From UHGV virus genome UHGV-1373362: 64,000 nt of DNA; one strand, 5' to 3'. This DNA comes from a virus. A model generated the notes under the pieces. That model saw nothing but the letters and a program-made list of their open reading frames with translations, was not told where the DNA came from and searched no databases. A program made the translations under genes and the position numbers. The stretch's first letter is position 1. Each line of letters opens with the position of its first letter. Positions 1-9,570 of the stretch are shown piece after piece.

Positions 1-1
1 C

Positions 2-586
2 ATTGGAAGTAATCAGTTTAGAGATCTGTGTAATAAGTATAGCCTAAGTGTGGGAACCTTGGATCAATACACAGGAGTTATTCCCGATAAAAATTTGCAG
101 GAGCTGTTAAATGCACAATCAAAGTTACAAACCTTTAAGTACTACCCATTTAATGGGTACAGCTGTCTCTACCAAGTATATTCTGTAGATGCAGGGTATG
201 GGATTGCTAACGATGCTGCTGAAGCAGTACGTAATTGGTTTAACACCCATTCTAACTTAATAGGTACATCTGAAGAAGATCCTAGTTGTACCAGGATTGA
301 ATCAGAAAAGATCTTAGAGCCAGATCTTCAAAACTTATTAGGAGAATACGAATTTAGTGATTTTGTGGGATTTAATGGTAAACTGGTTAGCTGTAAACAG
401 ATGCTTATGGCGTGTCCAATGAATCAGTTACAACATCAAACTGTAGAACTAATTAGAGAGGTTGTAGATCCTATAGTTTTCCAGCCCTGCCCTTATGATA
501 TAATAATATATACCATGTGGGGAGAGGAATCTGAGGATGAAATCATTCAAGAATATAAACGCCTTAATAATCTTATAAACTTATGA
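2..586 (+). CDS. hypothetical protein, 5'-partial
   Basis: Frame stays open to the window start. The listed start at 50 is TTG and no stop lies upstream. No recognisable motifs. Confidence 0.4.
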   Translation: MGSNQFRDLCNKYSLSVGTLDQYTGVIPDKNLQELLNAQSKLQTFKYYPFNGYSCLYQVYSVDAGYGIANDAAEAVRNWFNTHSNLIGTSEEDPSCTRIESEKILEPDLQNLLGEYEFSDFVGFNGKLVSCKQMLMACPMNQLQHQTVELIREVVDPIVFQPCPYDIIIYTMWGEESEDEIIQEYKRLNNLINL

Positions 587-894
587 CAATAATCGAAGTT
601 TTAAACAAGGCTGAGGCGATTTACATTAGCGAAGTTACCCGTGGTAAATATGTAGGTATGTGTTATTGCATAAAAGTAGCTGCATCACATGATGGAGGTC
701 GTTCATATCCATCCTATAGTAGCATACTTGATAATATCCCTGAATTTAATCCATTCTCTTTACATGGTACAAAAATACCTATAACTCCAGGACTTGATTT
801 CTGGTGGGATGTAGAATCAGTGGATAGTAGGGTAGATGCATTTGAAGCATTAAAGACCATATACACAGGTTCAAAAAAGGAATTTATTTATTAA
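583..894 (+). CDS. hypothetical protein
   Basis: ATG start overlaps the upstream stop (ATGA); fits the tight + strand gene packing. Confidence 0.45.
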   Translation: MTIIEVLNKAEAIYISEVTRGKYVGMCYCIKVAASHDGGRSYPSYSSILDNIPEFNPFSLHGTKIPITPGLDFWWDVESVDSRVDAFEALKTIYTGSKKEFIY

Positions 895-899
895 TCAAC

Positions 900-1241
900 A
901 TGGGAATATTTGGAAAGATTAAAGGAGCAATAACTCCTGAACAAAAGCCTATAAGTGCTTTTGATGCTTACAGTATGACTAGGTATGGCATAATTTCAGA
1001 CAAAGAAACTTTATGTAATACCTGTGTAGCGGAGATTAAGGCTTTAATGCAGTCTAAATCTATGCGTAATCTGTATAGCTTAACATTTGATTTGGATGAA
1101 AACTTACCCGAGCTTGGAGAGTATCTAGTAAATTACTACTCTGAACTTGGGTTTAATTGTTTTGTACTAGATGCTAGTATGGATAGTAGAATAGGATCTC
1201 CTATGCTTTATCTAAGCTGGCATAAGAAGGGAACACCATAA
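900..1241 (+). CDS. hypothetical protein
   Basis: 113-aa ORF with ATG start; no motifs recognised. Confidence 0.45.
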   Translation: MGIFGKIKGAITPEQKPISAFDAYSMTRYGIISDKETLCNTCVAEIKALMQSKSMRNLYSLTFDLDENLPELGEYLVNYYSELGFNCFVLDASMDSRIGSPMLYLSWHKKGTP

Positions 1242-1295
1242 GAGATTAAACAAATAAGAAGAGATTATTTTGTGGTAAACTTTAACGTGTTTTAC

Positions 1296-1484
1296 ATGTT
1301 TAAAAAGATTTCAATTGCCCTTGGATTAGTAATACTCACTATGGGTTGTGTTAGTCTTGTAGGGTGGTTATGTAGTGCTGCTAGCTGGGTATTAAATATA
1401 CTTGGTATATTTACTATTGTTGGCTATAGCAAACTAATAGATTATTTAATAAGAAAACATTTTAACAAAGAAAGTAATGAGTAG
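1296..1484 (+). CDS. small membrane protein
   Basis: The listed start at 1272 is GTG; the first in-frame ATG is at 1296. Single hydrophobic helix ISIALGLVILTMGCVSLVGWL. Confidence 0.35.
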   Translation: MFKKISIALGLVILTMGCVSLVGWLCSAASWVLNILGIFTIVGYSKLIDYLIRKHFNKESNE

Positions 1485-2280
1485 AGAGTCTAGTTATGGC
1501 ATGGGGGCGTTAGCCGTTATTGCGTTAGTGGTGGTAGTATTTCTAAGTTGTTTCAGCATTGACAGAATTGATTCTGGACAAACTGGAGTCATGGTCAATC
1601 TGGCAGGTAATGATAGAGGAGTAGATGATGCAAAGATTGAGACAGGTTGGGTAGTATATAACCGTTTTACCAAACAGTTATTTGAATATCCTGCATATGC
1701 TCAGATCGTGGATTACCCTCCTTTTGAAATCCAGGACATGAAGGGTACTATTTTTACAGCAGATCCAACCATTGAGTATTACATAGAACGTGATAAGGCT
1801 AAAGATGTATTTCTGAGGTATAGAAAAGACATTGAGGCTTTAGAAAATACTGCAATACTCGCAGAGGTTAAGAATGCCTACAAGGACATATCTGGAATGT
1901 ATGAAACAGACAGTCTCATTAATAATAGACCTCAATTTGAAAAGGAGGTTGAGGAATTACTAAGGACAAGACTCAGTGATAGGGGATTTACCTTTAGTAA
2001 TATCCAATCATCCGTTATGCCTAACTCTGCACTGCAAACTGCAATTGATGAAAAGAATACTGCTGTGCAAAAGGCCTTAAAGGTTGAAAATGAAAAGAAA
2101 GCTGCTATTGCTGAAGCTGAGAAAGCTGTAGCTGCTGCGAAGGGTAAAGCTGATGCTAATAGGTTATTGGAACAATCCATTACGCCTGAACTATTGCAAT
2201 TGAAAGCAATAGAGAAATGGGATGGTACGATGCCATTGTCAGTTGGTGGAGGTACTCTGCCCTTCTTGAATTTAAAATAA
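1477..2280 (+). CDS. SPFH/band-7 (prohibitin/HflK-like) membrane protein
   Basis: N-terminal TM segment, SPFH-like core, and a C-terminal Ala/Glu/Lys-rich helix (KKAAIAEAEKAVAAAKGKADANRLLEQS) typical of prohibitin/HflKC. Confidence 0.65.
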   Translation: MSRESSYGMGALAVIALVVVVFLSCFSIDRIDSGQTGVMVNLAGNDRGVDDAKIETGWVVYNRFTKQLFEYPAYAQIVDYPPFEIQDMKGTIFTADPTIEYYIERDKAKDVFLRYRKDIEALENTAILAEVKNAYKDISGMYETDSLINNRPQFEKEVEELLRTRLSDRGFTFSNIQSSVMPNSALQTAIDEKNTAVQKALKVENEKKAAIAEAEKAVAAAKGKADANRLLEQSITPELLQLKAIEKWDGTMPLSVGGGTLPFLNLK

Positions 2281-2306
2281 CTCAGTATTAAAAACTTATT
2301 AAAATT

Positions 2307-2921
2307 ATGGCAATTAACTTGCAAAAAGGTGGACGTATTGACCTTTCTAAGGAGTCCACAGCTAGTGTGTTTAGAATTGGTTTGGGCTGGGATGCAGCAC
2401 AACCTGGTAAAGAATTTGACTTGGATGCTATGGCTATTCTGCTTGGTGCTGATGGTAAAGCTGTAAGTGACGATGCAATGGCTCTGTTTGGGCAGTTGGA
2501 CGGTCCTGAAGCTATAGCTGCTACTGGTTGTATCCATCATTCAGGCGATAACCGTACTGGTGCAGGTGATGGTGATGATGAAACTATCACTATTGACACT
2601 GCTAAGGTTCCTGCCAATGTTCAGGAAATTGTAGTTCTTGTCAATATCCATGATGCCAAGAATCGTCAGCAGAACTTTGGTATGGTAAAGAATGCCAAGG
2701 TTAACCTGTATGAAGGTGCAGAAGGTAACAACGTTCTTGCCAAGTATGACCTGGAAGAAGATGCTTCTATGGATAGAGCATTGGTATTCTGCAGACTGTA
2801 TCGCAAGGATGGAGCATGGAAGTTCCAAGCTGTGAACGAAGGTAAGGGTAACTATCAGAATGTGTTACTGTGTGACATTCTGTCCAGTTATGGTATCAAC
2901 GCAGGTCCAAACAATCTGTAA
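2307..2921 (+). CDS. terD: TerD-family tellurium-resistance-like protein
   Basis: Diagnostic TerD motifs GDNRTGAGDGDDETI and a C-terminal WKF..A.N. segment; about 200 aa, as for TerD/TerE/TerZ. Confidence 0.8.
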   Translation: MAINLQKGGRIDLSKESTASVFRIGLGWDAAQPGKEFDLDAMAILLGADGKAVSDDAMALFGQLDGPEAIAATGCIHHSGDNRTGAGDGDDETITIDTAKVPANVQEIVVLVNIHDAKNRQQNFGMVKNAKVNLYEGAEGNNVLAKYDLEEDASMDRALVFCRLYRKDGAWKFQAVNEGKGNYQNVLLCDILSSYGINAGPNNL

Positions 2922-2924
2922 GCT

Positions 2925-3572
2925 ATGATAAATCTTAACAAAGACCTAGTAGCAGGAGGTCGTATCAACCTTAGTAAGGATGATAACGGCAATGCCCTTA
3001 CTCGTATCTTCTTTGGTGCTAACTGGGGAATGATCAACAAGGGTGGTGGATTTTTGGGATTTGGTAGTAGTAAGGAGAAGGTTGACTTGGATAGTTCAGC
3101 GGTATGTCTGGATGAAAATAAGAGACCCATTGAAACTATATCTTATTACCATTTACGTGCTAACAACAACTCTATCTTCCATTCTGGTGATGATAGAGGT
3201 GGTGATGAATTTGATGATGGATGTGACAATGAAACTATTACGGTAGATTTACCTAATGTAGATTCTCGTGTTCATCATATTGTCTTTATTCTCAATAATT
3301 ATACTCAACAGAAATTTGAAAAGCTCCCTTATATGGGCTTGAGAATTTATACTACTGCTAATGGTAAAATTTCCAGACGTATTAGTGATGAGGGAACTAT
3401 CTTGGCACAAGTTAAGCTAGATCCTAAATCTGATAAGTATATTGGGAAAAAGGGAATTATTCTTGGCGAGGTGTATCGTCATAACGGTGAGTGGAAGTTC
3501 AAAACAATTGATGTTACCGGAACTTGGGGTTCAATTGGAGAAATCACTAGAGAACTTCCTTCCATTATCTAA
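2925..3572 (+). CDS. TerD-family paralog
   Basis: Same domain pattern: GGRINLSKDD, HSGDDRGGDEFDDGCDNETITVDL, GEWKFKTIDV. A second TerD-like copy placed in tandem. Confidence 0.65.
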   Translation: MINLNKDLVAGGRINLSKDDNGNALTRIFFGANWGMINKGGGFLGFGSSKEKVDLDSSAVCLDENKRPIETISYYHLRANNNSIFHSGDDRGGDEFDDGCDNETITVDLPNVDSRVHHIVFILNNYTQQKFEKLPYMGLRIYTTANGKISRRISDEGTILAQVKLDPKSDKYIGKKGIILGEVYRHNGEWKFKTIDVTGTWGSIGEITRELPSII

Positions 3573-3595
3573 CAACTATTTAAAACTAAACTAAA

Positions 3596-3958
3596 ATGGA
3601 TTATCAAGAAGTATTAAAGCTCCGAGAGGAAATCTTTGCTGATGGTAAAGTAACCAAAGAGGAAGTTGAACTATTATGGAGCAAAAAGGATGAGCTTGAA
3701 GAGACATCTGCGGAATTTGGCAGTTTGTTTGCGGAGGCTGTAATGGCATGGCTGTTAGATGATGGTATTATTGATGAGGAAGAGGCTCAATATATCATCA
3801 ATAAAATTACCGAGGATGATACAATCGATGATGCCGAATTGGAACTACTTTACAGCCTGAACGATGTATATCAATCAGGTCTGTTACTTCCTAAATGTCT
3901 ATTAGAAGCATTCCCAGACTTCTTTACGGAAGACGAGGAAGAGGGGATAGAAGAGTAA
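3596..3958 (+). CDS. TerB-like acidic helical protein
   Basis: Two ADGxxxxEExxxL-type repeats (FADGKVTKEEVELLW and LDDGIIDEEEAQYIINKI) as in the TerB domain; sits directly after the TerD pair. Confidence 0.45.
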   Translation: MDYQEVLKLREEIFADGKVTKEEVELLWSKKDELEETSAEFGSLFAEAVMAWLLDDGIIDEEEAQYIINKITEDDTIDDAELELLYSLNDVYQSGLLLPKCLLEAFPDFFTEDEEEGIEE

Positions 3959-3993
3959 TTCTCTTCGTGTAATTTATAACGTATGTCGAGATT

Positions 3994-6489
3994 ATGAATA
4001 CAGTAGGATTAAGTGATAATGAAGTATTACAGAGTAGGAACCTTTATGGTTCTAACATACTAACTCCACCTAAAAGAGACCCCTGGTATATTCTTCTATT
4101 AGAGAAGTTCAAAGATCCTCTGATAGAGATCTTATGCGTTGCAGCTATAATTGCATTAATATTAGGTATAATCAAGCTAGAGTTTGAGGAACCTATAGGA
4201 ATTATTCTTGCTATATGTTTAGCTGTAGGAATGGGATTTTTGAATGAGTGGAGTGCTGCCAAGAAGTTTGATATTATGAATCAAGTATCAGACGACATTC
4301 TTGTAAAGGTTAGGCGTAGTGGTCATGTAACCCAAATACCACGGAAGGATTTAGTTGTAGGAGACATAGTAATTCTAGAGTCAGGGGAAGAGATTCCCGC
4401 TGATATAAAAATACTTGAATCTCACAATCTAAGGATTAACGAGTCTGCCCTAACAGGGGAATCCAAGGCCGTTATTAAAATGTCTATAACTGAAGGAGAG
4501 AACAATGGTACATATCCTTCAGATATGGTACTTAGGGGAACTACAATTGAAGAGGGAACAGCGACAGGTGTAGTTACAGCAGTTGGTGATAAAACTGAAA
4601 TTGGCAAAACTGCCAGACAAGCTGCTGAAATTACTGATGTTACAACCCCATTAAATAAGCAACTTAATGGTTTAGCTGAACTAATAAATAAGATTGCTTA
4701 CGGCGCCGCAACCTTTCTAATTATCTCTTTATTAGTAAAGTATTTCTTTATTGAGAAGGGGTATATAGGACAAGACTGGATGCAAATAGCGAATGATATG
4801 CTATCATGTTTAATGATTGCAGTAGCATTGATTGTAGTAGCTGTACCAGAGGGTTTACCAATGGCAGTTACATTAGCTCTAGCATATTCAATGAAAAGAA
4901 TGTCTAGGGCTAATAATCTAGTTCGTAAAATGCATGCATGTGAAACTCTTGGAGCAACTACATTAATATTGACTGATAAGACTGGGACACTTACTCAAAA
5001 TAAAATGAAAGTGGTAGACTCTAATATTACTGATGATAGTTATTTAAAATATAACATCTTAGGTAATAGTACTGCTTTTATTGAAGGGGACAAGACTATT
5101 GGAAATCCTACAGAGGGTGCCTTAATAAGGCATCTTAATGTAAGCCAAGCAGGGGTTGATATTCTTAGGGAGGAATGCAAACCTGTCTATAGAGAGGAGT
5201 TCTCCAGTAAGTCCAAATACATGCTTACAGTCATTATGCGGGGTGATAGGTATATAGGTCTAATTAAAGGAGCACCAGAAGTAGTTGAAGGATTCTGTAC
5301 TGAGGTACCACTCGATGTAGATGCTACAACTCAGCAGTATCGAGGCCGACGAGTAATTGGCTTTGCCTTTAAGGTTACTGACACTCTTGAAGATGCCGCT
5401 TCCCTTACAGGCTATAACTACAATGGTTATATGGCTATTGAAGATCCTATTAGACCTGATGTCCCTGAAGCAATTAGAGCTGCGAAGAAGGCAGGCATCA
5501 AAGTTAAAATCATCACTGGAGACAATCCAACTACAGCTATAGAGATAGCTAGGCAAGCAGGATTGAGTGATTCACCACAAGGAATGGCTGGTATTGATAT
5601 GAGGAATAAGTCGAATCCATATGATTCGGTTACAGGTATTTCTACTATTGATGTCTTTGCCAGAACGAAACCTGAAGACAAGCAAACACTGGTTACAGAG
5701 TTTCAAGCTCTAGGTGAAGTGGTGGCTATGACCGGTGATGGTACTAACGACGCCCCAGCACTTAATCATGCTGAAGTGGGTATAGCCATGAATAATGGCA
5801 CCGATGTGGCTAAAGAAGCTGCTGACATTATTCTACTCGACAATTCATTCCCCTCTATCATCTTGGGAGTAAAGTGGGGTAGAAGCTTGTATAAAAATAT
5901 ACAACACTTTATTCTATTCCAATTGACCATTAACGTAGTTGCTATATTAATTGCGTGCGTAGGTCCATTTATTGGAGTGAATTTACCCTTCACTGTAGTA
6001 CAGATGTTATGGGTAAACTTAATCATGGATACATTTGCTGCACTGGCGTTAGCTACTGAGCCAGCTAACGATGCAGTTATGGAAGAAGCACCTAGAGATC
6101 CTAAGGCATTCATTATCACTAAGAACATGTGGTGGGAAATTTTAGGTAAAGGTCTCATATTCTTCTTATTCTTAACCTGGTTGCTTATAGGCGAAAAGGT
6201 TTCACTAAGCTACTTCTTTACAATATTTGTATTGTTGCAGTGGTGGAACTTATTTAATGCTAGAGTATTTGGGCAAAAGAGAAGTATCTTTGATGGCTTA
6301 CTAAAGAATCCTGCATTTATAGGAATCTCTTTAGTTATTTTAGTAGGTCAATTCTTAATAGTGCAATTTGGTGGAGATATGTTCCGTACAGAACCTATTC
6401 CTCTAAATCATTGGGGTTTACTAATAGCAGGAACTTCAATAGTAGCTATATTTAGAGAATTGAAATATCAAATAAGCAAAATCTTTTGA
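3994..6489 (+). CDS. P-type cation-transporting ATPase (P2-type, Ca2+-ATPase-like)
   Basis: DKTGTLT phosphorylation motif, TGES-like actuator region, PEGLP in TM4, TGDN, and the GDGTNDAPAL hinge; about 8 or more TM helices. Confidence 0.9.
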   Translation: MNTVGLSDNEVLQSRNLYGSNILTPPKRDPWYILLLEKFKDPLIEILCVAAIIALILGIIKLEFEEPIGIILAICLAVGMGFLNEWSAAKKFDIMNQVSDDILVKVRRSGHVTQIPRKDLVVGDIVILESGEEIPADIKILESHNLRINESALTGESKAVIKMSITEGENNGTYPSDMVLRGTTIEEGTATGVVTAVGDKTEIGKTARQAAEITDVTTPLNKQLNGLAELINKIAYGAATFLIISLLVKYFFIEKGYIGQDWMQIANDMLSCLMIAVALIVVAVPEGLPMAVTLALAYSMKRMSRANNLVRKMHACETLGATTLILTDKTGTLTQNKMKVVDSNITDDSYLKYNILGNSTAFIEGDKTIGNPTEGALIRHLNVSQAGVDILREECKPVYREEFSSKSKYMLTVIMRGDRYIGLIKGAPEVVEGFCTEVPLDVDATTQQYRGRRVIGFAFKVTDTLEDAASLTGYNYNGYMAIEDPIRPDVPEAIRAAKKAGIKVKIITGDNPTTAIEIARQAGLSDSPQGMAGIDMRNKSNPYDSVTGISTIDVFARTKPEDKQTLVTEFQALGEVVAMTGDGTNDAPALNHAEVGIAMNNGTDVAKEAADIILLDNSFPSIILGVKWGRSLYKNIQHFILFQLTINVVAILIACVGPFIGVNLPFTVVQMLWVNLIMDTFAALALATEPANDAVMEEAPRDPKAFIITKNMWWEILGKGLIFFLFLTWLLIGEKVSLSYFFTIFVLLQWWNLFNARVFGQKRSIFDGLLKNPAFIGISLVILVGQFLIVQFGGDMFRTEPIPLNHWGLLIAGTSIVAIFRELKYQISKIF

Positions 6490-6890
6490 GTATGGAATAT
6501 TGGATATTATATCTTTGTGGTATAGCTGATCCTATTCATACGTTATTTAGAGTCTTTGGTATTATTGGAACTATAGTTGGTGTAATTAGTATACTTTTTA
6601 ACATGTGTGCTAGTAGTCCCAACTGTGATAAATGCTACAGAACATGTATAGCTAGCATAGTATCCCATAATATGAAGGTTAAAGGAATTAAAGTTTTGAG
6701 CATTAGTATAACAATACTGTTGGTTTCATGTTTAATCCCTAGATCCAAAGACTGTTATGCTTTATTTGGCATAGGGACGATTCTTAATTACGTTAACAAT
6801 AGTAACGAGGCTAAGAAGATTCCAGATAACGCATTGAAAGCAGTGAACCATTACTTGGAGTTATTAACTCCTAGTGACTCCATACAATAA
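6486..6890 (+). CDS. membrane protein, Cys-rich
   Basis: Two hydrophobic segments plus a CDKCYRTC stretch; ATGA overlap with the ATPase gene stop. Confidence 0.35.
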   Translation: MSMEYWILYLCGIADPIHTLFRVFGIIGTIVGVISILFNMCASSPNCDKCYRTCIASIVSHNMKVKGIKVLSISITILLVSCLIPRSKDCYALFGIGTILNYVNNSNEAKKIPDNALKAVNHYLELLTPSDSIQ

Positions 6891-6930
6891 AGAACTTGGG
6901 GTCAATGCTGGTTAAAATCAGTGTTGGCCC
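6887..6930 (+). terminator. putative rho-independent terminator
   Basis: Imperfect hairpin ggggtcaatgctgg..cagtgttggccc with G-U pairs, followed by a T8 run. Confidence 0.4.
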
Positions 6931-6975
6931 TATTTTTTTTAAGATGGATGGTATGTAACTGACTAGTAACTTTTA

Positions 6976-7464
6976 GTGAAAGGACTAAGTAAAGTTAAGG
7001 CATGGCTCGAAAGAATGAACTTTAACCAAATAGAGCAAGTGGGCGATACTAATTCAGAGTATTTCCAATTAGCTGGGTTTCCCATTACTATTAGGTTAGG
7101 AGATCATTTAGGTAGAGCTAATACAATTTCTGACAAATACATCAACCTATTACCTGGTGATAGTTCAGAGTCGTATGTTCTGGTTATAAATAAGACTACC
7201 AAAGTTGTTAAGTATAGAGAGTTACTCAAAGTAATAAGTGGCTTTATTTCTCTCTATTCAGTTCTTCCTGATTATATGAAGTTTAGATCTGATATGAAAA
7301 GGGAGTTTCAACAGAAGGAAGCTAGTTTAAATACAGAAATTAACAATTTGAGGACTAATATGAATGCATTTAAGTCTAAAATGAAAGACAAATTAAATGG
7401 ATTCAGTCAGGCTTTGAAGAAAGTTAATAACGATATTGTAGTAGAAATGAGTAATCTATTATGA
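6976..7464 (+). CDS. hypothetical protein with C-terminal coiled coil
   Basis: ORF only; the C-terminal half has heptad-like repeats. Confidence 0.4.
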   Translation: MKGLSKVKAWLERMNFNQIEQVGDTNSEYFQLAGFPITIRLGDHLGRANTISDKYINLLPGDSSESYVLVINKTTKVVKYRELLKVISGFISLYSVLPDYMKFRSDMKREFQQKEASLNTEINNLRTNMNAFKSKMKDKLNGFSQALKKVNNDIVVEMSNLL

Positions 7465-7856
7465 ATATAATTAATAATATAATTGATTCCTGGAAGCATA
7501 TACCTTATACTCTTAGACATTACAAAGCATTCCTTAAGACTGAGAAGAAGTATTTAAAGTCTTATAAATATAAGTTCCATGATTTAGACAAAGTACTAAT
7601 GTACATTCTAATTCCTTGGGTAGGAACTAAACGTATTAAAGAAGTGCATAGGTTTTTCAACTCACACCATATCCAAAATTACAAGAATCCTCTTAATTGT
7701 AACTACGAGGAGGCAGCTATTGACTGGGAATGTTGTAGATTTACTAAACCTAATGAACCTATGAGTGCAAGGGAATATCTAGAATATAAGAGGGGAACCC
7801 TAGATTATTTACATTACTACAGAATGGATGAGGCTTTGAAACGATTAGGATTATAG
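7461..7856 (+). CDS. hypothetical protein
   Basis: ATGA overlap with the upstream gene. Confidence 0.4.
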   Translation: MNIINNIIDSWKHIPYTLRHYKAFLKTEKKYLKSYKYKFHDLDKVLMYILIPWVGTKRIKEVHRFFNSHHIQNYKNPLNCNYEEAAIDWECCRFTKPNEPMSAREYLEYKRGTLDYLHYYRMDEALKRLGL

Positions 7857-7857
7857 G

Positions 7858-8133
7858 ATGGTTATTCAAGAAACTGATTTTAGGATGATTCCTAGTGGTG
7901 TCAACACTCATTTCTGGGATTTAGAGCTATTACAGACGATAAAACCTAGAGGTGGTAAAGAGAGACAAGAGTTTAAAGAGGCAGGATATGGGATGTTATT
8001 TGAAACTTGTATAGAGAGAATCGCCCATTACCGTACCGTAAACAATTGCCCTGATGTGGTATCATTAAAGGAATATTTTGAAGATTACATTAAGCACATA
8101 AAGGAGCTTAAAGAACTATGTAAAGGATGCTAG
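7858..8133 (+). CDS. hypothetical protein
   Basis: ORF only; ends with CKGC. Confidence 0.35.
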   Translation: MVIQETDFRMIPSGVNTHFWDLELLQTIKPRGGKERQEFKEAGYGMLFETCIERIAHYRTVNNCPDVVSLKEYFEDYIKHIKELKELCKGC

Positions 8134-8692: not shown

Positions 8693-8957
8693 GCTTACCG
8701 AGTGTTCTAAATTTCTGTATGAAGTATCTTTATACAAGATATGGAAAGACAGATCTGAATCAATTGACAGCCAGTTTTATGCTTCTGAGGTACCACTAAA
8801 GGTCAAAGAAGCTACTTTCGTTAAAATGAAAGATTACACATTGGCTAGGTTTGTAACTTGGCTAGGTGCACCCGCAGATTATTTAAAAAATAATTTTAAA
8901 TTAATTACTGATGAGGGTAATAGACGCAAACGGAAACCCAGAACAAAAACAAACTAG
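8646..8957 (+). CDS. hypothetical protein
   Basis: ORF overlapping both neighbours; start uncertain. Confidence 0.3.
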   Translation: MAKKLTQNVYSYKQYRLTECSKFLYEVSLYKIWKDRSESIDSQFYASEVPLKVKEATFVKMKDYTLARFVTWLGAPADYLKNNFKLITDEGNRRKRKPRTKTN

Positions 8958-9051
8958 TCAAGGTACTAAGACAGTAGGTGCACCATCTACTATGACTTAT
9001 ACCGAGAGGACTATTGATACTACTAGACGTAAGTGCACTTTGTCTAGTGTA

Positions 9052-9570
9052 ATGATTGAAATGTTAGTCAAGCAAATGTCTGCTGAATTGGCTAACCACT
9101 CATTATACAGGACATTTGCTAATTACTTTGATGTAGAGGGGTTGCCTAAGTTAGCAACTTATTGGTTGGGAAGGGCTGCTGAGGAATATCTGCATCATGA
9201 GTGGATCTATAAATATTTAACTACTAATGATGCTTTGTTTCAATATCCACCAGTCCCCCCAATCAGTGTGGACATTACTGATAGGGTAATGCCTTTCGCT
9301 GCAACTGTGGATAGGGAGATTGAAACCACTATGGGCATTAACAAAATTGTGGATCAAGCACAAAAAGAAGGTGATTGGGCTACATTCCAGTGGTTGAATG
9401 GAGAGGATGAGGAAGAAGGTAGACTTGTTAAAGAGCAGGTAGAAGAAGAATCTATCTCTAGAACCATACTAGACATGGCTAGAGAAGAGGGATCTTGGCT
9501 TCGTAAGCAGTCTACTATATTGGCCTTCTATCGTAATCCAGAAAGCCTACAGCCTTCAAGAAAGGCATAG
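9052..9570 (+). CDS. ferritin-like diiron protein
   Basis: MIEMLVKQMSAELANHSLYRTFANYF..G...WLGRAAEEYLHHEWIYKYL parallels bacterial ferritin helix A/B (LNxQxNxELxSSxxY...AxEExxHxxxLxxYL) with an ExxH iron ligand. The track ORF starts at 8911; an internal ATG was chosen to give a ferritin-sized product. Confidence 0.4.
   Translation: MIEMLVKQMSAELANHSLYRTFANYFDVEGLPKLATYWLGRAAEEYLHHEWIYKYLTTNDALFQYPPVPPISVDITDRVMPFAATVDREIETTMGINKIVDQAQKEGDWATFQWLNGEDEEEGRLVKEQVEEESISRTILDMAREEGSWLRKQSTILAFYRNPESLQPSRKA

Follow-up and report, generated by a model that had tools for sequence, protein, structure and literature searches.

A TerD, TerB-like and P-type ATPase gene block with a predicted role in Ca2+ handling in a clade of large, putatively crAss-like phages

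The 64,000-nucleotide stretch of UHGV virus genome UHGV-1373362 analyzed here (the window, a term we use for the whole stretch) carries a block of genes in which two TerD-family proteins and a small acidic TerB-like protein are encoded directly upstream of a P-type ATPase, hereafter the pump (Table 1). The conserved core of this block in related viral loci is TerD-TerD-(TerB-like)-pump, and tandem TerD genes are paired with a pump of a different lineage in gut Clostridia. We read the block, with somewhat more belief than doubt, as an auxiliary operon with which a large crAss-like phage would combine Ca2+ buffering or sensing with Ca2+ export during infection.

Positions 1477-6489 hold five adjacent but separate open reading frames (ORFs), all on the + strand according to the ORF list and translations. 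The initial annotation of this DNA had reported five consecutive genes here, with coordinates that all agree with ours; its description of the Ter genes as fused to the ATPase is right as to adjacency, with gaps of 3-35 nucleotides (nt), and wrong as to gene fusion. Viral relatives of the block were found by exact peptide words from the query, and the counts therefore describe one clade only. Within it, TerD1-TerD2-pump is kept in 48 of 50 pump-seeded loci, across pumps that are 47-76% identical, and the TerB-like gene is present in about 30 of the 50. Loci seeded with TerD1 contain the pump in every case in which downstream sequence is available, and the position between TerD2 and the pump is retained by TerB-like representatives of different 50%-identity clusters. 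In one genome (L008/L119, IMGVR_UViG_3300045988_052724, 189,817 base pairs) the module is split, with TerD1 at the end of the contig and TerD2-pump at its start, which fits a circular or terminally redundant genome. The combination had been described as not a standard phage module. This holds for cultured phages, although TerD itself is common in large cultured phages and PHROGs has families for each part of the module; it fails for the ~185-kb crAss-like clade, in the whole of which the module is standard, and phage Ca2+-ATPases have been published (PMC12880540).

The pump is, by its family assignment, a predicted PMCA-type (P2B-like) Ca2+-translocating P-type ATPase, Ca2+ being the ion that we infer. 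It scores 632.5 bits against the PMCA-type equivalog TIGR01517 (NCBIfam; cutoff 507) and lies under the respective cutoff of each of the PMR1, SERCA, H+, Na/K, Mg, Cu, Zn/heavy-metal and Kdp models, the Mg, Cu, Zn and Kdp scores falling short by a wide margin and the runner-up being the PMR1-type model with 469 bits against a cutoff of 798. On these scores it is a P2B/PMCA-like pump rather than a Mg2+ or heavy-metal pump, a distinction that the initial annotation had put forward as a check. The best solved relatives in the PDB are Arabidopsis ACA8, human PMCA2 and PMCA1, followed by Listeria LMCA1. The previously noted motifs DKTGTLT, PEGLP and GDGTNDAPAL can all be read in the translation, which also carries TGES, KGAPE and TGDN. 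In the alignments to ACA8 and PMCA2, M4 (VVAVPEGLP) and M6 (QMLWVNLIMDTFAALALATE) are near-identical, and M5 (FQLTINVVA; clade form FQLT[IV]NVVA) has Ala at the position of SERCA E771, the site-I Glu. The site-II Ca2+ ligands, Glu of PEGLP in M4 and Asn and Asp in M6, are kept. Because Ala replaces the site-I Glu, a pump with a single Ca2+ site is predicted. Among 50 pumps (49 phage loci and the window; identities 58-76%), DKTGT and VPEGLP are kept in all 50 and the M6 motif (N...D) in 49.

By hydropathy the pump has about 10-11 hydrophobic spans and is the only multi-pass membrane protein of the window. At 831 residues, compared with 1054-1274 in ACA8 and the PMCAs, it matches these proteins over the core only and lacks the calmodulin-binding autoinhibitory extension, which is typical of eukaryotic PMCA and ACA pumps and not required of bacterial PMCA-like pumps. 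Some relatives from huge phages have an insert of about 1 kb that splits the pump gene (L050, 11800-12900; L041 and L042, 10001-13563). The insert of L050 contains a 243-residue ORF resembling a homing endonuclease, suggesting an intron or intein.

The pump might instead export Mn2+ or another divalent cation, in the manner of PMR1-type pumps and TerC-family exporters, and TerD, TerB and a ferritin-like gene downstream might together form an island for divalent-metal or oxidative-stress homeostasis; the PMR1-type model is the second best for the pump (469 bits), related phages share the ferritin-like gene found 2.4 kb downstream, and the TerC family is annotated as functioning in metal homeostasis (annotation of the ter plasmid L136). 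We regard this as unlikely, however. The PMCA-type model alone is passed, the PMR1-type score falls far below its cutoff, and at nearly every residue M4, M5 and M6 agree with PMCA and ACA8. Moreover, the acidic loop of the TerD proteins is the same loop for which Ca2+ binding was demonstrated in Klebsiella TerD (Pan 2011, as cited in PMC8123226).

TerD1 appears from its sequence to be a canonical cytosolic beta-sandwich TerD with an intact predicted Ca2+-binding loop. It scores 193.9 bits against Pfam TerD and matches the solved TerD proteins of Streptomyces (3IBZ, 4.5e-45) and Klebsiella (2KXT, 4.7e-44). Its translation contains the motif HSGDNRTGAGDGDDE as well as FDLDAM, and its acidic Ca2+-loop segment, GDNRTGAGDGDDE, aligns to GDNRTGEGDGDDE; this segment and FDLDAM align to Klebsiella TerD and are conserved across the clade. 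We take the Ca2+ segment of TerD to be GDN(R/L)TG(E/A)GDGDDE with an upstream DLD, after Pan et al. 2011. TerD2, which starts 3 nt past the TerD1 stop codon, is a more distant paralogue (Pfam TerD, 88.5 bits; 2KXT, 3.6e-12) with the motif HSGDDRGGDEFDDG; its acidic loop is longer (GDDRGGDEFDDGCDNE), is accompanied by VDLDSS and is likewise conserved across the clade, orthologues in 48 loci being about 47-53% identical. An AlphaFold2 model of TerD2, built from a shallow TerD alignment, has a low predicted local distance difference test score (pLDDT, 57), and Foldseek retrieves TerD structures only (E <= 7e-4); we count the model as corroboration only. Two TerD-family genes with Ca2+ motifs had been predicted, and the acidic loop region is indeed kept in both; nor is the Ca2+-binding fold lacking, as TerD1 matches solved TerD proteins and the weak TerD2 model retrieves nothing other than TerD. 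Klebsiella TerD binds Ca2+ (Pan 2011) and a Streptomyces TerD protein affects Ca2+ homeostasis (Daigle 2015), both as cited in PMC8123226.

The TerD1 gene also has a history of its own. Over 2289-2920 of the window, this gene alone is 96-100% identical in nucleotides to that of L013 (IMGVR_UViG_3300045988_063131), while the flanks are about 35-70% identical. The TerD1 protein is 99-100% identical in six further loci (L011, L014, L028, L036, L037 and L044) whose pump is 72% identical to that of the window. Such identity between divergent flanks suggests that a single-gene cassette was exchanged recently.

The third component of the core is strongly acidic (37 Asp and Glu residues, 8 Lys and Arg) and contains the repeats ADGKVTKEE and DDGIIDEEE, followed by a degenerate third, DDTIDDAE. 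It had been described as a TerB-like protein with two ADGx4EE repeats; the first repeat stands as described, while the second has DDG in place of ADG and the third had gone unremarked. The protein is modeled with confidence (pLDDT 89) as three helical hairpins. Each hairpin loop carries a motif of the DGx[IV]xxEE type, similar to one half (positions 5-12) of the loop of an EF-hand, weak EF-hand matches come from these loops, and the acidic loops of the repeats are conserved in the clade. Cation binding is plausible on these features.

Its relation to TerB is indirect. The window protein has no match in Pfam, including Pfam TerB, BLASTP finds no match between it and the canonical TerB of a terZABCDE plasmid (L136), and hhalign comparisons with TerB give a probability of only 13-36%. 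An exhaustive profile search retrieved 741 relatives, the best of which, P0249 and P0254 among them, pass the Pfam TerB cutoff; among 70 single-domain relatives, 49 match Pfam TerB (E <= 0.01) and 33 match DUF533, presumably a member of the same Pfam clan. The repeat motif ADG-x-[IV]-x-x-x-E aligns with AFADGVVTPQE of TerB. Thus, the name TerB-like does not survive as direct membership in TerB but does as homology at the level of the family, and we consider it acceptable at the superfamily level judging from these profile matches. Among the distant relatives (P0265, P0281 and P0312), some are long proteins that join multiple repeat copies to a UPF0114 membrane domain, while fusions with CW_7 repeats or with a ParA/MipZ-type ATPase occur in others.

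A pairing of TerD with a P2 ATPase also occurs outside the phage clade. In Lachnospiraceae and other Clostridia (L089-L095), a YceG-TelA-TerD series with two to four TerD genes runs directly into a gene for a P2 ATPase of 878-880 residues. The linkage is found in two chromosomal contexts, one of which adds PRTase, StiP and lyase genes, and no TerC is encoded within the 9 kb shown on either side of these TerD-pump loci. Both contexts also have, on the opposite strand and some 1.5-4 kb past the bacterial pump, an AIM24-family gene and another TerD-domain gene. Two GenBank contigs labeled as bacteriophage (L086 and L087) likewise link tandem TerD genes to a P2 ATPase. These two and L088 (MT840059.1, MT836648.1 and MT838269.1, respectively), deposited as "UNVERIFIED: Bacteriophage sp." from human stool, look bacterial, and L087 plainly is, since it carries MetG, MoaB/C, TatD and a full Ter cluster. 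Short, unannotated contigs of this sort account for many of the P-type ATPase matches in the phage collection.

In a neighbor-joining tree of the pumps, a simple method applied to a limited sample, the TerD-linked pumps of Clostridia form their own clade and are 27-34% identical to the phage pump, while the phage pumps group with a pump of the type found in Jug phages (huge gut phages, discussed below) and with L088. Against TIGR01517 the Clostridia TerD-linked pumps score 465-467 bits, just below the cutoff of 507. Both TerD-linked lineages share the PMCA-type motif W[VI]NLIMDT in M6, where Clostridia pumps unlinked to TerD have NLVTDS. Because the bacterial pumps are a separate lineage, the TerD-pump pairing was assembled at least twice on this evidence, and this is the strongest argument for a functional pairing. 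A scan of bacterial genomes with the phage pump, which missed the closest host homologues, returned only relatives of 31-35% identity without TerD neighbors, indicating that the linkage is not general.

Several observations weigh against a Ca2+-handling operon. The specificity of a P2 pump cannot be read from sequence with certainty. The conservation described above belongs to a single clade, and some 20 of its pump-seeded loci do without a TerB-like gene. L035 and the Jug-type loci L050 and L051 keep the pump without an adjacent TerD, from which it follows that the pump needs no TerD encoded beside it, and cultured phages with TerD are mostly without a P-type ATPase. TerD1 moves between genomes alone, so parts of the module are exchangeable. 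Finally, the whole 64-kb window is coded on one strand and tightly packed, and the short gaps within the block by themselves therefore say little about co-regulation.

On another reading, TerD, the TerB-like gene, the pump and SPFH would be independent, host-derived accessories with no functional coupling among them, gathered at a single insertion hotspot where the replication block starts. In keeping with this are the clear insertion of SPFH and its small partner (below), the exchange of TerD1 on its own, the occurrence in L035 and the Jug-type phages of a pump that has no TerD beside it, and the invasion of the pump gene by mobile inserts in some genomes. We nevertheless judge a lack of coupling to be quite improbable: the genes stay adjacent and in the same order even where protein identity has dropped to 47-63%, and a phage hotspot cannot explain the same pairing arising independently in bacteria with a different pump lineage. 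Conservation across the clade, together with the independent bacterial linkage, strengthens the case that TerD and the pump are functionally linked.

The fifth gene of the initially proposed module, encoding the SPFH protein, does not belong to this core. Its identification as a band-7/SPFH protein is secure: it scores 54.2 bits against Band_7 (cutoff 23.6), matches phrog_200 (5.5e-52) and has the N-terminal membrane anchor of the family as a single membrane-spanning-like segment at residues 10-28 by hydropathy. The gene adjoins TerD1 only in L006, L040, L129, L097 and L098, of which L129, found from TerD1, has the full SPFH version; it is adjacent in only two of the 50 pump-seeded loci, and counted over distinct contigs, this amounts to 3 of 51 from IMG/VR plus two from Logan, and the module is accordingly not one of five genes. 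A short ORF that overlaps the SPFH start by 8 nt encodes a 70-residue protein without a Pfam match and with a weak PHROG match to "membrane protein"; it accompanies SPFH in L040, where it is 46% identical. SPFH and this small membrane ORF are clearly an optional insertion found in few lineages.

At its other end, the block extends past the pump. The 134-residue membrane ORF, whose start overlaps the pump stop codon by 4 nt, follows the pump in about 26 related loci and may encode a partner or small subunit of the pump. Both small membrane ORFs belong to the same block, as does the strong terminator-like hairpin after the 134-residue ORF, and this predicted hairpin probably closes the transcription unit. 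A scan for sigma-70 promoters, whose consensus excludes Bacteroidota promoters, found 24 sites where 26.6 were expected and hence no signal. The ferritin-like gene, about 2.4 kb downstream of the pump and in the same relative position in L097, L098, L102 and L103, is the second metal-handling gene of the neighborhood.

Table 1. Features of the TerD/TerB-like/pump block and its surroundings in the window
Feature	Coordinates	Strand	Properties and evidence
Small membrane ORF	1272-1484	+	70 residues; 2-3 hydrophobic spans (hydropathy)
SPFH/Band-7 protein	1477-2280	+	267 residues; Pfam Band_7, 2.5e-14
TerD1, canonical TerD	2307-2921	+	204 residues; Pfam TerD, 2.3e-57
TerD2, divergent TerD paralogue	2925-3572	+	215 residues; Pfam TerD, 5e-25
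TerB-like small acidic protein	3596-3958	+	120 residues; without Pfam match
P-type ATPase (pump)	3994-6489	+	831 residues; Cation_ATPase_N, E1-E2_ATPase, Hydrolase/HAD and Cation_ATPase_C (Pfam)
Membrane ORF with two membrane spans	6486-6890	+	134 residues; hydropathy; phrog_3878, 7.9e-13
Terminator-like hairpin	6897-6932	+	16-base-pair stem, then T-run; consensus match
Ferritin-like gene	8911-9570		Pfam Ferritin, 1.2e-12

The phage that carries the block can be placed from the remainder of the window, a replication and nucleotide-metabolism region on one strand with helicases, primase, NrdD, ligases and PolA (PHROG families). PolA is 50-54% identical to those of crAss001, IAS virus and cr111_1, and the annotated relatives of the primase all come from crAss-like or other Bacteroidota phages. 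Related IMG/VR contigs measure 95-225 kb and mostly 140-192 kb, those set beside the Zeta group being 175-192 kb, and the G+C content of the window is about 0.35 (0.34-0.39). Within the crAss-like phages, the Zeta group is reported to have the largest genomes and a complex replication apparatus, with PolA and a rich dNTP and replication block (~155-190 kb, 28-37% G+C; literature including Yutin 2021), with Bacteroides, Phocaeicola or Prevotella as predicted hosts. The replication proteins, G+C content and size of related contigs point to a crAss-like phage of the Zeta group, the host of which is probably a member of the Bacteroidales. A megablast search of window positions 1-8000 against the INPHARED phages returned no match.

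The functions predicted for the individual proteins can be assembled into a scheme for the Ca2+-handling operon. Cytoplasmic Ca2+ might rise when the genome is injected or the envelope damaged, or just as a result of the high Ca2+ content of the gut lumen, and the TerD pair and the TerB-like protein would then bind it, acting as buffers or sensors beside the membrane. The pump, occupying the place that TerC has in classical Ter clusters, would extrude Ca2+ from the cytoplasm through its single site at the cost of ATP, so that conditions stay good for a long replication phase. The 134-residue membrane protein would be translationally coupled to the pump, and, in the few lineages that have them, SPFH and its small membrane partner may organize a membrane patch. 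Contact between the pump and the TerD and TerB-like proteins, whether physical or regulatory, as well as when the genes are expressed and how the phage benefits, are parts of this scheme that we infer. It is reasonable to suppose that the phage manipulates host Ca2+.

The initial annotation had offered a second possibility, the countering of a Ter-type defense, which finds no support, as PADLOC gave no significant match; its models produced two marginal matches to the proteins of the module (E = 0.004-0.007). A related idea is that the cassette, with SPFH in some lineages, serves superinfection exclusion or competition between phages, making the cell refractory to rival phages or bacteriocins by, for example, neutralizing ion fluxes. 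Ter operons of IncHI2 plasmids confer resistance to phages and to pore-forming colicins (as cited in PMC8123226), and these phenotypes are what such a role would build on. An arms race would also fit the pattern of change in the block, in which TerD2 evolves fastest (about 47-53% identity, versus 80-100% for TerD1), TerD1 is swapped singly, and SPFH and the small membrane genes come and go. We consider exclusion improbable as the primary role, given the lack of a significant PADLOC match and the dependence of classical phage resistance on terZABCDE including TerC, which is absent here, where the pump is the sole multi-pass protein of the window. It is, moreover, compatible with Ca2+ handling and would not replace it.

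We also entertain a rather doubtful generalization, in which TerD paralogues and TerB-type proteins would act as partners that sense Ca2+ and regulate a cation exporter in the membrane. In this phage clade and in gut Clostridia the exporter would be a PMCA-type pump, with TerD/TerB standing in for the calmodulin-binding tail of its eukaryotic relatives, and the phage cassette of four or five genes would be a minimal functioning Ter core. If this were true, "tellurite resistance" would be a by-product of the homeostasis of Ca2+ or other divalent cations at the membrane. Pathogens, plasmids and phages widely carry Ter genes, whose mechanism, beyond the binding of Ca2+ by TerD, has been puzzling for decades; the compact TerD/TerB-like/pump cassette offers a small experimental system for Ter function.

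Neither the conserved crAss-like operon nor its independent counterpart in bacteria seems to have been described before. Our literature search, which did not extend to the 2012 comparative-genomics paper on Ter systems or to the supplement of PMC12880540, turned up no publication that connects TerD with a Ca2+ pump, and the papers on Zeta and Epsilon crAss-like phages and that of Yutin make no mention of TerD, calcium or cation ATPases. Classical ter clusters (terZABCDE; yceCDEFGH in B. subtilis) share with the block several TerD paralogues and a TerB-type protein beside a membrane transporter, as in L136, where the order is TerZ-TerA-TerB-TerC-TerD-TerE. Anantharaman, Iyer and Aravind reportedly proposed, in 2012, a membrane complex of TerD paralogues, TerC and TerB. 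The window differs in having a P2 ATPase where TerC would stand and a TerB-like protein far from canonical TerB. Among the window ORFs searched against Pfam, a part of those in the 64 kb, there is no TerC, TelA, TerA/Z/E/F set, YceG or PRTase/ATP-grasp/lyase. The Clostridia clusters resemble the phage block in that tandem TerD genes stand directly upstream of a pump with PMCA-type M4, M5 and M6; they differ in their YceG and TelA genes, AIM24-TerD pair and two to four TerD genes, and in having no small TerB-like protein beside the pump. The Ca2+ ATPase of a Chlorella virus (Bonza et al. 2010, as cited in PMC12880540) is likewise a functional virus-encoded Ca2+ P-type pump expressed in infection, but belongs to a giant virus of eukaryotes and comes without TerD or TerB partners.

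A close comparison is with Jug phages and other huge gut phages, whose Ca2+-translocating P-type ATPases were published as new for phages (Chen et al., Sci Adv 2026, PMC12880540) and are highly transcribed in the gut (PMC12880540). The same work lists four smaller phages with pumps, of 159-197 kb, which are probably relatives of the window clade. Jug phages and the window phage have in common a PMCA-type pump in gut phages of Bacteroidales and a proposed manipulation of host Ca2+, and the pump of the window clusters with that of a Jug-size contig, L051, to which it is about 49-51% identical. This contig (CASEGV010000001.1, 370,971 base pairs) was deposited as a metagenome-assembled genome of an "uncultured Mycoplasmatota bacterium"; its gene order is shared with the viral L050, and it is probably a huge phage binned as a bacterium. 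The arrangements around the pumps differ. The pump of Jug phages has as its upstream partner an orphan gene of 77-91 residues, and the terD genes lie elsewhere (PMC12880540); in the Jug-type L050 and L051, the 8-10 kb of available flank contain no TerD, and the ORF preceding the pump shows no relation to the TerB-like protein. The ORF upstream of the pump in L051 (7623-7973), which we compared with window ORF 900-1241 and with the TerB-like protein, had no BLASTP match and an hhalign probability of 0.2%. By contrast, the window has TerD-TerD-TerB-like-pump as one block in a crAss-like genome. With this block, the known range of phage Ca2+ pumps grows beyond Jug phages to include crAss-like phages, a group that ranks with the most abundant viruses of the human gut, and phages may, as this suggests, have turned repeatedly to controlling host Ca2+.

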